From contig NW_027191483.1 in NCBI RefSeq assembly GCF_011745625.1, positions 62,001 through 126,000 of the forward strand: a stretch of DNA of 64,000 bases, given 5' to 3'. Positions 41,573-51,639 of this stretch are shown one piece after another (position 1 is the first letter of the stretch; every line of letters begins with the position of its first letter). Source of the stretch: Cladosporium halotolerans (taxonomy: Eukaryota). Both the position numbers and the translations under genes were made by a program. The notes beneath the pieces are model-generated. The model saw nothing but the letters and a program-made list of their open reading frames with translations. It was not told the DNA's origin and did no database searches.

Positions 41573-42001
41573 AGCCCTTCACCTGCTCTCTTAAGGCGAT
41601 GCTCATCCGCCTACCAACCACGACTTCCTTACAAGGGAGATGCCAAGCACCCCGAGCATTCTGAGAATTGTACAATGTAGGGATAAAGATGAGCTTGATG
41701 CAATTCCCATGATGAATTCACCCATATCTACGGATTTGGGGAAATGCTCACATCGCTCAACTCTGCACGCGAGCCTTGCCTAATGATCAGGTCCTTCCGC
41801 TGCGAGCCAGAGCCCGCCAGGCACCAGTCACAAGCTGGTCAACGTCGATGTCGAAGACAAAAGTTTTCGCTCGCAACCTCGTTCGAAGCTGAATTTTCCG
41901 AACGAGGCCATCTCAACGCTTTTCAGGAATTGAGACTCAATACGCACAAAACTCTACTTAGGATACCGTACCACAAACCGATCACATTCACCAATCTAGT
42001 C

Positions 42002-42781
42002 TCAATCCTCCCTCCCTTCCTCGCTTTGCACAGCAACAACACTCCCCTCAGCCGCCCTCACACGCTCAAACCCCACCCGCCACTTGCCGCACGACTTGCA
42101 ACCCGCCCTCTCCCCGCCCTCACGGCAATTCTCCTGATGGAACCGATCCCAGTCAACCAGCACGTTCCGCGTCGGCGAACCCCTCTCATGCTCCTCCTCA
42201 CCACACCCCACCCCCTCACCATCCTCTCCATCGTCCTCCAGCACCTCGCTCGACGGAACCGGCGACGGCGAAAACGACACCGACCTCTCTCTCCCCCTCT
42301 CCACCACGCCCCCGAACTCCCTCCCCAGCGCTCCCAACCCCTCCTCCCCAGCTCTCACAACTCCCCTGCCTCGCTCGAGCAATCCCTCCACAGCGCGTCC
42401 GCAAGCCTCCGCCCTCTCCTCCGATTCCGGGAGAGAAGCCATTTCGGCGCGCAGAGCAGCGAGGCGGGATTGCAAGGCGGAGTCGAAGGTTTGGAGGAGG
42501 GTGTGCAGGGCCGTTAGGTGGGGTCCGAGCCGCTGTGCGGCGGGGCGGGGTTCGGAAGGGGGTCTGGCGGGGGTCTCTGTGGGGTGGAGGGGCTCGTGGT
42601 CGAGGGAGAGGAAGGAGATGTCGAAGTCCTCCGGGTCGTGGTGGTCGTGTGGGGAAAAGGGGCCGCTGCTGCTGTCGCCCACGTTGTGTTGGAAAGCTTT
42701 CCGGCTGGCTTGGGGGTTAGGAGTTTGGTTTGCGGTTTTGGTGGACGGGGAGGCTTACGGGGAGGGCGGGTAGCGGTGCAT
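42002..42781 (-). CDS. Hypothetical protein (about 241 aa; exons 42781-42759, 42704-42002)
   Basis: ATG CAC CGC TAC CCG CCC TCC CC|GTAAGC...CTAAC...CAG joins in frame to the 226-codon ORF; no recognisable domain. Confidence 0.4.
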
Positions 42782-45776: not shown

Positions 45777-46833
45777 CATGCGCGCACACGCCTCCCGGTA
45801 GCCCGCAATTGCATGCGGCGGCGGCGGCGGCGGCGCGAGGTACGCAAGCCTGCAGCTGCAGGCCACTCGCTGCAGGCCTAGCAGGCCCATCGCCGTTCGC
45901 CTGTGCGTGCTCCGCAAACGCAGCCTGGCCGCGATTTTGTGACTGGGGACCGCGGCCCGCCCTCCAACTGGTGCCATTGAGTAAATTGGCCCGCGCCGCC
46001 GCCGCCCATTGGGTGGCGGGTGGGTGGGTTGACGAAGGTCGTCGAACCTGTGGTCCTGTGGTCCTGTGGACCTGCGTTGCTGCTGCAGGTCGCGCGCAGC
46101 TGCAGTAGCCTGGCGTGTGGGTGTTTAGGCGTGCAGAGCGCACGGCGTGTCTTCACTTCTCGTCACGCCCATTGTTTTTTTCTGCGCATCTGCGTTTGCT
46201 GTCTCGTCTGCTGTCCTACTCCCCATCTCATCACTCGTGCTACGGTGGAGCAGCGGCACAGCAAAGGGCGACGGCAAGGCCATCCCAGCGCCCCGTATTC
46301 CGTCGACTCACTACCCCGGCTCGTGCGTTGTGGCCGCAGCCTGCCGGAGACAGGCGTCGAGACCCTTGCTCGCATCTCGAGCACGCCCGCCGCGAGAAAG
46401 TTCCCTTAGGCTTCGCCTCTCGCTCAACACCCGCCCGACGCCTGCGCACGCCCTCGCCCTCTCGCGTGCACAAACACGCGCGTGCTGCCACTCGCACTGC
46501 TCTGTTCGACCTCGTCCGGCCTCTGTTCGCTCCGTCGACGCCCATTGCTGGCGACGCATCACTGCCTGCCCGCTGCCGACAGCCCGTAAACAGACGACTG
46601 TGGGGTCCGCTCCGCTGTGTGAGACACACGAACACTCCAGAGTCAACAAACCGAGTCAACATACGTCAACAACCCGGCATCTGCGACATTCGAAGAGCAA
46701 CACTGCTCGCTCGCCCTTTTATTCCTCGATCCGCCGTCTAGCACGCTTCACTCGGATTCCCATCACGTCGACTTTCACGCTGAGCGACTTCGACGCGTTG
46801 AAGGCCTGAGGCCTCCCACCAGCATCCATCGTC

Positions 46834-48240
46834 ATGGCTATCCTAGACCACTCCCGCTCCGACTCTTCGGATACCTCATCCACCGGCTCGTCCTACCAAC
46901 ACATCCTGGATCATGTCTTGACCTATCACGCTGGTTACGAAATGCCCCTCCGTACCATGTACACGCTCAACAGCGCCCCACGTGCACAGCCATTGCCACC
47001 TCGACGCGGTACACCCACATCGAGTGCAAGCAGCTCGCCCACGTCTCCCATCGTCAGCAATGCATGGCAAGAGAACCCGACGACCAGCATCTTCAACGAG
47101 AACCTGATGGCACAGATGTCGCAACTGCCGACCCAACCTGCTTCGTTGCCTCCCAGTTTCATCACTTCGTTCCTTGGCAGGTGTTTCCCAGCAGACCTGG
47201 TCAGCGTGGACTTCCCACAGGCCCTGACCGGTCTTGACTACCTCAAGGACCTGGAGATCCGGAGGCAAAGGGAGGTTGCCCTTGCGCTCGGCCGCACACA
47301 CGTGGATTCGGCCACCCTGGAGAACGAACATGAGTTAGCTCACCAATTCCCTGGTGTCGCCCGATGGAAGCGAAACATCAGGAATCAAGAGCAGATCATT
47401 GAGTCTCTGTACACTGGCCTGTACATCGGGCTGAGGCGTTGGGTGAGCACCTTATCTGACCGTGGCTATCGTGGAAAACATGCACTAACTTTCTTCTAGA
47501 TCCTCATTAACGAGCTTTCCTTGACGCCTTTCAACAGGCACAACTGCGTGGCCATGCTCAACACATTGTACCCACCTTTCGCAGCACCGCCCACGACCGT
47601 CAACATCTCTCAGGACAACCTCAAGAAGCAGAGAGATGGCTTCTTCCGATACATCTCAGCCGTCGATCGAGATGGCCCGCGAGTCCTGTCGAACGTCATT
47701 AAGCAAGGTATGGCTGAGGGTGACAGTAACGGCTGGGCACCCGTTGTTCGTCAACTCCAAATGTATCTCCAGCACGCCAACAACATGATCAACGAATGCT
47801 GCAACGTTCACGACCTCGAAGATCTCGAGCCATCCAAGCTCGTCTACGGCAAAGGCAGACGGTCAAAGACCGATTCAGGGATCTCGATCCAAGGCTCGGA
47901 TGTGCGCCCATCTACTGCGTCCCACGAAAGTACACATAGACCCAAGACCCCGTCTATCGGCCGAGGCACCGCCCTGGAGAAACTTGCTCGTGGCCTGAAG
48001 ACCATTGGCCGCAGCCGGACAGATGTCACAGAGATCAGCCCAAGGGAGGAGATGTTCAATACGTCGCCACCGAAGCAGCACAAGGGACTTCGAAAGATGC
48101 GAAGCATGGGCGACCGTTCCTTGAAGTCCGCACACGCGCAGGACTCGCCCGCTTTCGACGTGGAAGAGATGCGCCGCCACCGTCTGGCATACGAGGCAGG
48201 CCAGAAGCGGTTGGCCACTGGACGCAGCTTTGAGGTCTGA
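46834..48240 (+). CDS. Fungal hypothetical protein, probably conserved (449 aa; exons 46834-47442, 47500-48240)
   Basis: YEMPLRTMYTLN, SLPPSFITSF, VDFPQALTGLDYLKDLE, LYIGLRRW|ILINEL, NCVAMLNTLYPP; a canonical 57-nt intron joins two ORFs in frame. Confidence 0.8.
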
Positions 48241-49382
48241 GCCGACCGTCCACTAACACTCTCACCACTGGCCAATGCTAATTGGCCATTCTGGATTGTA
48301 CGATTTTCTTATTCTCATGCGACGATACCACGACGAGCGCTCACACGTGCGCCACCACACTTGTTTCCATTATTCTCCTCTTGTTTGCACTTTTTGTCTA
48401 TATACTTATCTTGCTTTTTCAATTGGGCGAACTGGCGTTATAGACGAGGGGGATGTCTAACACGGGATGGATGCCTCGCTGGCGGCAAAAAATATCTATG
48501 GGTTGGCCTTGATGGCCCGTGGTCGGGAACCAAAAGCCTATGGTCGAGGCAAAGCGTGTAACGCTATGGGAAGACGGGTACCGGCTGAGGACTTTTGGGT
48601 ATAGGCCCAGGGATGGCGTTTACAATTGCTTTTTGCGAGATTACGAGACGGATTGGCTTGCTTGTGAGGCGATAGCCTGCCACTCGAGTTGAGCCAAGAT
48701 GTTCCGTGGGGATAGGACGTCGGATTACTCTACCTTAGCCAAAGGAGATGACAAAAACCACAAAGTTTCCACACAAGAGCTGAAGAGATCGACTCCCGCC
48801 TCTCATTCGTCACTCAGCACTATTCTTCCAGCCTCTCTGGCTCGGTGTAATTCGGGCTCGAAAGGCTGGGCTAAGGCTCCAGAGACGGCAAGATTGGCGG
48901 GACGAGGCGCAGGAGTCATACTTTCATAGTCCCAACCCTACTTCAAGCATGCGTTTCCCGCAATCACACGAAACCCTCTTTCCACCTTCTCCATCCTTGT
49001 CGCGAAGTTGTCCATCATCGCCGGACGTAAGGCAAACGCGTCGTCGTCATTCCCGCCTTCCGCTTGCTGAACTTGCAGATCGCCAACCGCACTTGCACTC
49101 GACCGGCTTCCGCGGCGTCAAGCACCGCTCGTCCATTGGCTTTCCCGTCAACAATAACGTAGCTCAACAACGGCACTCGTAGATCTCTTGTCGTGGCGCC
49201 GCCGCTATCACTCCATCTCACCACTGCACCTTGCCTCTTTTGGCGCTGACGGGGGATTGTTCCTAGTCCACAGCTAGACGCCTAGTTGGACGCCTTGCAC
49301 CCACCGTTCCACTCCGTCGACCTCGGTCCGTCACCTCACTCGACCATCACCCAACAATTCCTCCCGAGAGCTTCACCTGAAG

Positions 49383-50644
49383 ATGGCGGAACTCTCTTTC
49401 GTCACTCTGGACGTTTTTGGTACGTTCACATGGGAACTGTCAGATCTGCGTCCCTTCAGGCTAATCGATCGTAGTAGGTCTCGCCGTTCTCTTGATGCCC
49501 GATCCAGACTTCACTTGACTTGGCCGCGCTGAGCCGCGCAGTTGGGCCTCGCGGATGAGACCCATTCGTACGAGCGCTTACGAGCATACGACGAGCCGTG
49601 TCTGCTCGCCAACCTTCATGCAACCCGTCTTACCTTCCAACCCAGCAGACCGCCCAAGCCCTTTCATTGAATCTCGCGGAGCGCCGCTCGCTCCCCTCCT
49701 CCCTACCCGCAGAGCTCTCCTCAGCTAACCCGCACCCTCCCATCCAGACCGAGACGCGCTTCAAAGGCAACCCGCTCGCCGTCGTCCTCATCCCGCACGG
49801 CCAGGACCCCGCGACCGAAACTCTGCAAACCCTCGCGCACGAATTCAACCTCTCCGAAACCGTCTTCCTCTACCTCCCCTCCCCCACCAACCCCGACCCC
49901 TCCCCCACCCCCTCCTGGCGCGCCCGCATTTTCACCGTAGCCGCCGAACTCCCCTTCGCCGGCCACCCCACCATCGGCACCGCCTGCTACGCCCTCCGCA
50001 CCCTCTCCCCCGCCCCAAGCGGCACTCTCCACCTCCCCGCCGGCCCCGTCCCCATCTCCCTCACCACCTCCGGCGCCGCCGCCCGCGCCTCCGTCCCGCA
50101 CGCCCTGCACCTGCACACCGAGACCCCTTTCTCCCTCGCGGACGTCGAAGCCCTGCAGCCCGCGCTGCGCGCGCACCGCGTGCGCGCCATCGACGTCGTG
50201 AGCCCCGTGCGCGGGATGAACTTCGCGTGCGTGGAGCTGGAGGGCCTCGAGGCGCTGGGCGCGGTCGGGTGCAACGGGCTCAAGCCCGCCGTGAGGCTGG
50301 ACAGGGAGTGGGACGTGGGGTTCGTGGGGGCGCTGTTCTATGTTGTTCTGGGCGTTGAGGATGTCGAGGGCGGGGGGAGGAAGGTGCAGGTCAGGACGCG
50401 GATGATCGAGGGCGCGTTTGAGGATGCGGCGACGGGGAGCGCGGCGTGCGCGCTGGCGGGCTTCCTGGCGCTGAAGGGGGGCGTGAGGCGGGTGGAGTTC
50501 GAGGTTGTGCAGGGGGTTGAGATGGGGAGGCGGAGCGAGATTGGGGTTGTGGTTGGGCTGACGGAGGGGTTGGATGGGTTGGAGAGTTTGGAGTTGAGCG
50601 GGAGCGCGGTGCGGGTTATGGAGGGGAAGGTGGTGGTGGAGTGA
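49383..50644 (+). CDS. PhzF/PhzC-like (diaminopimelate-epimerase-fold) protein (310 aa; exons 49383-49418, 49748-50644)
   Basis: Joined N-terminus MAELSFVTLDVF|TETRFKGNPLAVV, EFNLSETVF, RIFT..ELPFAGHPTIG, EDAATGSA, QGVEMGRRS. Confidence 0.9.
49419..49747 (+). other. Predicted [D1,2] stwintron: internal intron 49420-49474 nested in the donor of external intron 49419/49475-49747
   Basis: G|GTACGT...GCTAAT...TAG|TAGGT...GCTAAC...CAG; removing the inner intron creates a GTAGGT donor; only this route restores the PhzF frame. Confidence 0.85.
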
Positions 50645-51639
50645 GTGAGTGCTGTTGTGTCTCAGGTTTGAGGTGATGTGAGGTTATGTGTTTGATGTGT
50701 ATTTTGTGGGGGAGTATAGATTTGTCTTACTTGGGCTTGGTTTCGATTTACACGCATACAAATATCCTTTTGATCGTTTCTTGCATCGTGAACAGGCACA
50801 ACCAAGGTAGTGCCCTTCAATAGGCATCGTATTCAGCTACCTTCCATAAATCCAGTAAGGGACTATCAGACCGCGTGTCTGTGAAAGCAACAATGCTCTA
50901 TATCAAATTACCGAATAAGGCTATCAGTGCATCATTCCGCTTACTCGGGTGTGCATTTTGAACGGTAGGGATGTTTGACACGGTATGGTTACTAGGGTTA
51001 GGGTTGGGGTTAGCTCGAAGGCCTATCTTCAACGACGACCGCTTCTTGCGAGAGGCATCAGTCGACCGAACTTTTCTATGCGAAGCAGCTGACAAGTATA
51101 CCGTGGTGAGAGGCGGTTGTTTGCTGCAAATCTGCCTTTTCATGCATTTGAAGACCCCATAGCAATGATTTGGAGGTCCATGAATGCGTTTGATGAGCAC
51201 AGAAGGCACCACATTGATCCGAGGGGAGAGCTGTGTCGAAAACAAGAGCGTCCACAATGTTCCCACTCGTTGATGACACTGCCGATCTATAGGGCATATT
51301 TCACCACAAGAAATGGAAAAGCAAGCCGAATCGACAAAGTCAAGCTCCACAACTCTTCACATTCAAACTCTCCTCCTTCTATCTCATCGTGCCTCTCGCA
51401 ATAATCTACTTCCTTTCTTTCCCACCCTCAGGGTGAGGACACCACCATGCCAGTGAAGTTGCGACTCTAAAGCGGGAAGAACAAAAAACCCCCAACCTCA
51501 TCGAAAGAAGAAAGAACGCCGTTCCAAAGGCTGTCTGCGGGACACGAAGAAGAAAAGATGCAAAACGTCCCTCCCTTCACTTCCCTCCTCATCTCCCAAG
51601 CCAACTCGCTAACAGAAAGCAGTAACATTACACGCCACC

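Follow-up and report, generated by a model that had tools for sequence, protein, structure and literature searches.

Spliceosomal twin introns (stwintrons) of the [D1,2] type, in which the donor of an outer intron is split between its first and second base by an inner intron, are an established class. According to two reports (PMC9024468, PMC12403724), more than 100 of them occur in one Hypoxylon genome and more than 1500 across the Hypoxylaceae, and nearly 300 sequence-similar ones were found in 14 Xylariales. Sister stwintrons with near-terminal inverted repeats (NTIRE-10) are thought to propagate (PMC8469720, PMC12403724). In this field, a [D1,2] stwintron is validated by its mature junction together with the splicing intermediate, the evidence sometimes coming from a closely related strain (PMC12403724). 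Here, we analysed a stretch of 64 kb of DNA, called the window throughout. Its positions 49419-49747 very probably form a genuine [D1,2] stwintron in a two-exon gene of the PhzF family.

The coding part of exon 1 (49383..49418, + strand; 36 nt, 12 codons) encodes MAELSFVTLDVF. The ATG at 49383 is the first one past an in-frame stop, and the exon ends with GAC GTT TTT at 49418. Exon 2 (49748..50644, + strand) opens with ACC GAG ACG at 49748. It carries the PhzF-family domain in 298 codons followed by TGA (50642-50644), and its protein starts with TETRFKGNP. Because the exon-2 frame contains no ATG from the preceding stop to 49748, an upstream exon is needed. Comparison of exon 2 with the Pfam profile PF02567 (PhzC-PhzF) gave 3e-36 and 125.8 bits (cut-off 27) over profile positions 5-281 of 281, position 5 being placed on the very first exon-2 residue. 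The solved structures of PhzF, yeast YHI9 (1ym5) and PA4716 also align to exon 2; residue 14 of YHI9 pairs with the first exon-2 residue, and the NLSE[ST] and ELPFAGHP stretches are common to the exon-2 protein and its solved relatives of the PhzF/YHI9 family. Since the profile alignment starts at position 5 and that of YHI9 at residue 14, a short N-terminal piece is expected upstream. The predicted product of the two-exon gene, with its single intron position, is a protein of 310 residues having the family N-terminus. The PF02567 assignment bears solely on the place of the exon junction.

A shift in base composition was observed within exon 2. Over 49748-50641, the codon third positions change from C to G near codon 150: the first 150 codons have 117 third-position C and 20 G, the last 148 codons 99 G and 34 C. 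The GC skew of the exon goes from -0.57 to +0.65. The same switch in the sign of the GC skew was seen in a GC-rich block at about 41851-42750.

A search with the exon-2 protein yielded 5446 proteins with E <= 0.001 among 8000 scored candidates, and the best 120 were listed. The best named homologues within these 120 of 5446 are from dothideomycetes, e.g. Cladosporium, Oleoguttula, Elasticomyces, Acrodontium and Rachicladosporium; judged from them, the host is predicted to be a dothideomycete fungus. The N-termini of 26 of the 120 listed homologues were examined. Fifteen of these, at most 58% identical, begin with M..F.T.DVFT.T.F.GNP, as exon 1 joined to exon 2 gives. The preliminary description of the locus had read DVFT.TRF.GNP across the two exons as the N-terminus of the family, and these 15 more distant homologues agree with it. 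Orthologues beginning with M..LSFVTLDVFT match the N-terminus encoded by exon 1.

The remaining 11 of the 26 are the closest proteins examined (60-98% identical; P0003-P0011, P0013, P0014). They lack DVF and run from unrelated residues into T.T[KR]FKGNP. In P0003 (98% identical), the N-terminal residues correspond to an in-frame translation of the 3′ part of the intron. Among the 11 is also a gene model for a eukaryote, a named Cladosporium species, with a short N-terminus that is different again. We infer that these 11 close relatives would also carry an intron at the same spot and that gene callers failed there. The expectation that standard gene finders would mis-annotate such a gene was indeed borne out, as 11 of the 11 closest proteins examined are without the DVF N-terminus. 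This suggests that the intron position, and perhaps the mis-annotation, may be shared across the clade. In several of the 11, A-N or L-T residues lie 8-12 codons before the junction and could be GCTAAC/CTAAC branch elements read in frame.

Orthologous DNA was sought in metagenomes in one scan with generic patterns. Its 80 loci had identities of 42% or less, and three of them were read. The two best (L001 and L002) have DVFT uninterrupted and no intron there; the third, L045, looks bacterial. A search with the 49-residue open reading frame P0001, which runs from exon 1 into the intron, for relatives reading DVF-G..., as a stwintron would, or DVF-V..., as a canonical intron would, gave no candidate.

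The stretch between the two exons is the sole intron position of the gene. It spans 49419-49747 (329 nt, 60% G+C), begins with GG and ends with AG. Its first base, G49419 (+ strand), corresponds to G1 of the split outer donor. The inner intron occupies 49420..49474 (+ strand, 55 nt). It has the donor GTACGT at 49420-49425, the branch element GCTAAT at 49460-49465 and the acceptor TAG at 49472-49474, with 34 nt from donor to branch element and 6 nt from branch element to acceptor. The remainder of the outer intron occupies 49475..49747 (+ strand), the outer intron being 274 nt long when G49419 is counted. It starts with TAGGT (49475-49479) and contains the branch element GCTAAC (49724-49729) and the acceptor CAG (49745-49747); the distances are here 244 nt from donor to branch element and 15 nt from branch element to acceptor. 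Removal of the inner intron joins G49419 to TAGGT and creates the donor GTAGGT. This anatomy had been proposed in the preliminary description. On re-reading 49000-51200 all of its coordinates held, including those of every motif of the 55-nt inner intron and of the rebuilt donor. It had also been argued that single-step splicing would shift the frame. Indeed, a one-step splice from 49420 to 49747 leaves G49419 behind, and the first stop in the shifted frame is reached at codon 215.

We surveyed all GTs of 49383-49560 together with all AGs of 49600-49764. None of these GTs is a consensus donor in phase 0. The GT at 49420 had been described as the only GT donor. Literally taken this did not stand, as GTs are also found at 49401 and 49413 (both in phase 0, poor donors within conserved codons), and a native GTAGGT at 49474-49479 is in phase 1, for which the AG at 49724 is the sole in-frame partner. 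The substance of the claim stood: none of these further GTs, spliced to the acceptor at 49747, yields the N-terminus of the family. Two AG|T sites are present inside the intron. Only the one at 49474 rebuilds a consensus donor and has an upstream branch element; the second, at 49541, would give GTTGGG. A [A2,3] stwintron shifted by one base, a configuration known from PMC9024468, was considered as well and rejected, since it requires a G after the 3′ end, where the actual base is A. No RNA family reached its Rfam gathering score on either strand of 48800-50900.

With this anatomy, splicing would proceed as follows. The spliceosome would define and excise the short inner intron 49420-49474 (GTACGT...GCTAAT...TAG). 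Ligation would then set G49419 beside T49475, thereby building the consensus donor GTAGGT. A second ordinary reaction would excise the 274-nt outer intron by means of GCTAAC and the CAG at 49747, and TTT (49418) would meet ACC (49748) in phase 0, giving the 310-residue protein. Inner excision would have to come first because the outer donor is assembled only by the first ligation; it is from this anatomy that we infer the order of the two reactions, inner first, in the organism of the window.

The [D1,2] search expression of Fekete and co-workers (PMC9024468, section 2.1) was run on both strands of the 64 kb. With the published spacings, no match was obtained in the window. When the gap allowed between outer donor and branch element was widened to 260, the expression returned exactly 49419-49747 (+), plus one other match. 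All five published motifs are present at the locus, in agreement with the [D1,2] architecture put forward in the preliminary description. GTACGT, directly behind G49419, belongs to the 24 donors that the model lists. The inner branch element, DYTRAY in the model, and the HAG acceptor, allowed at 25-80 nt after the donor and at 4-20 nt after the branch element, respectively, are found at 34 and 6 nt, and the inner intron measures 55 nt for a model minimum of 42. The third motif, TAG|TAGGT, gives GTAGGT, again a listed donor. The outer GCTAAC-CAG gap of 15 nt falls within the allowed 4-20 nt. In contrast, the outer donor-to-branch distance of 244 nt exceeds the 25-110 nt of model A and the 111-200 nt of model C. 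The published range for this gap is a search setting, not a mechanistic limit.

In 100 dinucleotide shuffles of the window, the widened model gave on average 0.12 matches, and 11 of the 100 shuffles had at least one. Therefore, a match somewhere in the window is not rare; chance would not be expected to place one at precisely the spot where protein homology calls for a phase-0 junction. Since a motif match alone is weak evidence, the case rests on the position of the match at this homology-required junction and on the RNA data described below. The second match of the widened model, at 47317-47576 (-), was rejected. It lies antisense to the long open reading frames 46810-47499 and 47500-48240 (+), and its inner signals (GTGGGT, GTTAAT, AAG) are weak. 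This match probably arose by chance, which fits the 0.12 expected.

Four sequencing runs (X1, X19, X21 and X24), chosen by word share and sample relations, were compared with the locus. The comparison used contigs instead of raw reads, and contigs drop rare variants. No run is RNA on record; joined contigs, missing intron cover and short contigs suggest that X1, X21 and X24 are RNA. X19 is a DNA run; it shares its organism with X21 and X24, and its sample with X24. It holds the whole of the compared stretch in one contig of 61,406 letters, collinear with the window, with zero differences at a depth of 34.6; X19 may be the source data of the window itself and is hence not independent.

The mature junction 49418/49748, an apparent GG-AG intron which the preliminary description had predicted for the messenger, was found in one contig of X21 (depth 73.9, shorter side 141 letters) and in one contig of X24 (depth 74.3, shorter side 148 letters). 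This joint, 49418->49748, leaves out 329 nt that begin with GG and end with AG, and its positional ambiguity is 0, showing that G49419 is removed from the mature RNA. In both runs the contigs are short and the intron is uncovered, and the joint is absent from the DNA run X19. The junction 49419/49748, expected from the frameshifting missplice, was not among the joints of the four runs, which is no evidence of absence since contigs drop rare variants. The contigs of X21 and X24 with the mature junction extend by about 300 letters beyond 49250, the start of the compared stretch. This suggests a 5′ UTR of at least 400 nt or, alternatively, that a transcript lying upstream overlaps here. Behind 49880, a single X24 contig shows an additional C, in a C-rich tract 14 nt from the end of the match; it is absent in X21, X19 and X1 and is probably an assembly error at a contig end.

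The predicted intermediate, with junction 49419/49475, had been named as a further check. It was found in X1, a run from a close relative (organism A), as a contig of the expected structure; no contig of X21 or X24 contains it, which says little given that contigs lose rare variants. In X1, exon 2 shows 23 differences in 937 nt, and the outer intron 7 in 304 nt. Record 1 of this run covers 49250-49418 and stops there, and record 3 spans 49748-50684 with no joint in it. Record 4 (60 nt, depth 112.6) consists of 30 leading letters followed by 49748-49777, that is, the mature joint. Record 2 (334 nt, depth 50.6) opens with the identical 30 letters and continues with 49474-49777. In the window these letters have a single place of match, 49389-49418, with two mismatches, and 100 shuffles gave 0 matches; both mismatches are third-position and synonymous (CTC to CTT, ACT to ACG). 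Record 2 thus runs from the last part of exon 1 over a single G and TAGGT through the complete, retained outer intron into the start of exon 2. The exon-1 end is joined at 49474/49475, because the junction 49419/49475 reads the same as 49418/49474, both bases being G. The G between TTTTT and TAGGT is kept in records 2 and 8. No X1 contig covers 49419-49473. Record 2 appears to be the splicing intermediate, with exactly the predicted structure, in a related strain. At position 49723, X1 has G instead of A. The AG of the sole alternative in-frame acceptor (49724) is thereby lost, and the adjoining branch element GCTAAC is left intact.

Record 2 could be read in another way. Organism A would have only the GTAGGT...CAG intron, record 2 would be an intron-retaining transcript, and the inner 55 nt of the window would be a recent gain. 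The lack of X1 cover over 49419-49473 agrees with such a gain, and an intron arising inside the donor of an existing intron is a published route to stwintrons (PMC12403724). However, the two strains are very close, as the difference counts given above show, and a presence/absence difference between them would seem unlikely a priori; furthermore, a rapidly removed inner intron is expected to be uncovered in RNA contigs. We consider this recent gain improbable. Even if it had occurred, the organism of the window would need two steps, since the GG..AG stretch is not canonically spliceable in one. The strain pair would then show, before and after the event, how a canonical intron became a [D1,2] stwintron when a new intron entered its donor between G1 and U2. 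It would represent the birth of a stwintron outside the Xylariales, where births have been inferred.

It is very improbable that the 329 nt are a non-canonical GG-AG intron excised in one step and that the nested signals are there by coincidence. The mature junction alone is silent on the number of steps, and X21 and X24, the runs of the organism itself, show no contig of the intermediate. Nevertheless, U2-type splicing requires a cleavage site with GU or, in rare cases, GC or AU. The locus has all five [D1,2] motifs, suitably spaced apart from an outer donor-to-branch gap above the search ranges, and a contig having the exact structure of the intermediate exists in the X1 run of the relative. 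Moreover, apparent fungal GG-AG introns are explained as two consecutive reactions in the literature.

It is hardly credible that the additional G is an assembly or sequencing error, the true DNA reading TTT|GTACGT with an ordinary 328-nt GT-AG intron. The mature mRNA would be identical, and X19, as the possible source of the window, is not an independent witness. Against this, the independent Logan assembly of X19 agrees with the window at a depth of 34.6, a run of two bases is not an error-prone homopolymer, and the X1 contig retains a G between TTTTT and TAGGT that DNA with a single G could not have left. Finally, a main product made through the native GTAGGT donor at 49474 and the in-frame acceptor CAG at 49724, its protein carrying some 35 additional residues behind DVF, can practically be set aside: the phases fit (exon-1 length modulo 3 = 1, acceptor offset 2), but no such joint was seen in any of the four runs, the conserved DVFT motif would be split, and the G at 49723 destroys that AG in organism A. 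Overall, consecutive removal of an inner and an outer intron is very probably how the 329 nt leave the transcript, the [D1,2] architecture having in its favour both the published motifs and the RNA-like contigs.

The known mechanism of stwintron splicing is unchanged by this case. Its main value lies in annotation and in the question of how widely stwintrons occur. Nearly all described cases are from the Xylariales, and the locus would add a RNA-supported [D1,2] stwintron in a dothideomycete. Stwintrons reportedly occur in another dothideomycete, Helminthosporium solani. Motif models in use would miss the window stwintron, as it is longer than the published sets; it is also more GC-rich. The consequence for public annotation is an error in the 11 closest proteins examined, which carry a translated intron or another start in place of DVF.

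In comparison with the unique [D1,2] stwintrons of Hypoxylaceae and Xylariaceae described by Fekete, Flipphi, Karaffa and co-workers (PMC9024468, PMC12403724), the window stwintron has the same split of the donor between G1 and U2. As in that set, one G is left and the frame is shifted if the inner step is skipped (PMC12403724). The 6 nt between inner branch element and acceptor are within what is described, the distance being 7 nt in 49 and 6 nt in 11 of 81 unique published cases (PMC9024468). The differences lie in host, size and composition. The published unique set comes from the Xylariales, whereas the host of the window stwintron is a presumed dothideomycete. The window stwintron measures 329 nt, compared to 313 nt for the largest case of Hypoxylon sp. 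CO27-5, and contains 60% G+C, whereas all 117 published ones have more AU than GC (both PMC9024468). The host gene also differs, a PhzF-family gene not being found among the published stwintron hosts (PMC9024468, PMC12403724). In the open-access literature, no stwintron in a PhzF-family gene was found in the texts of PMC9024468 and PMC5639578 or in the supplements of PMC9024468 and PMC12403724. This agrees with the statement in the preliminary description that no report of one was known, and the host gene family is new for stwintrons within the texts and supplements searched.

Sister stwintrons share the [D1,2] architecture with the window stwintron. No sequence-similar copy of the latter was found in the 64-kb window (best non-self blastn E 0.2). 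Nor was a 10-nt near-terminal inverted repeat found in the 329 nt, where only a 9-nt arm pair with 89% complementarity occurs, 23 and 31 nt from the ends. Compared within the 64-kb window, the stwintron behaves, by its sequence, like the uniquely occurring type. The minimum-energy fold of the 329 nt contains a 6-bp stem, ATGGGA/TCCCAT, pairing 49430-49435 with 49738-49743, its arms being 11 nt and 4 nt away from the 5′ and 3′ ends, respectively. This stem, too short to be told from chance, recalls the near-terminal stems described for the sister stwintrons of Xylariales.

Recursive splicing at ratchet points of long animal introns also proceeds by consecutive removal, the first ligation regenerating a 5′ splice site. 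There, both bases of the regenerated GU come from the downstream side of the ligation point (AG|GU). In contrast, the window stwintron takes the G from upstream and the U from downstream, and the product of its first reaction has one extra intronic base.
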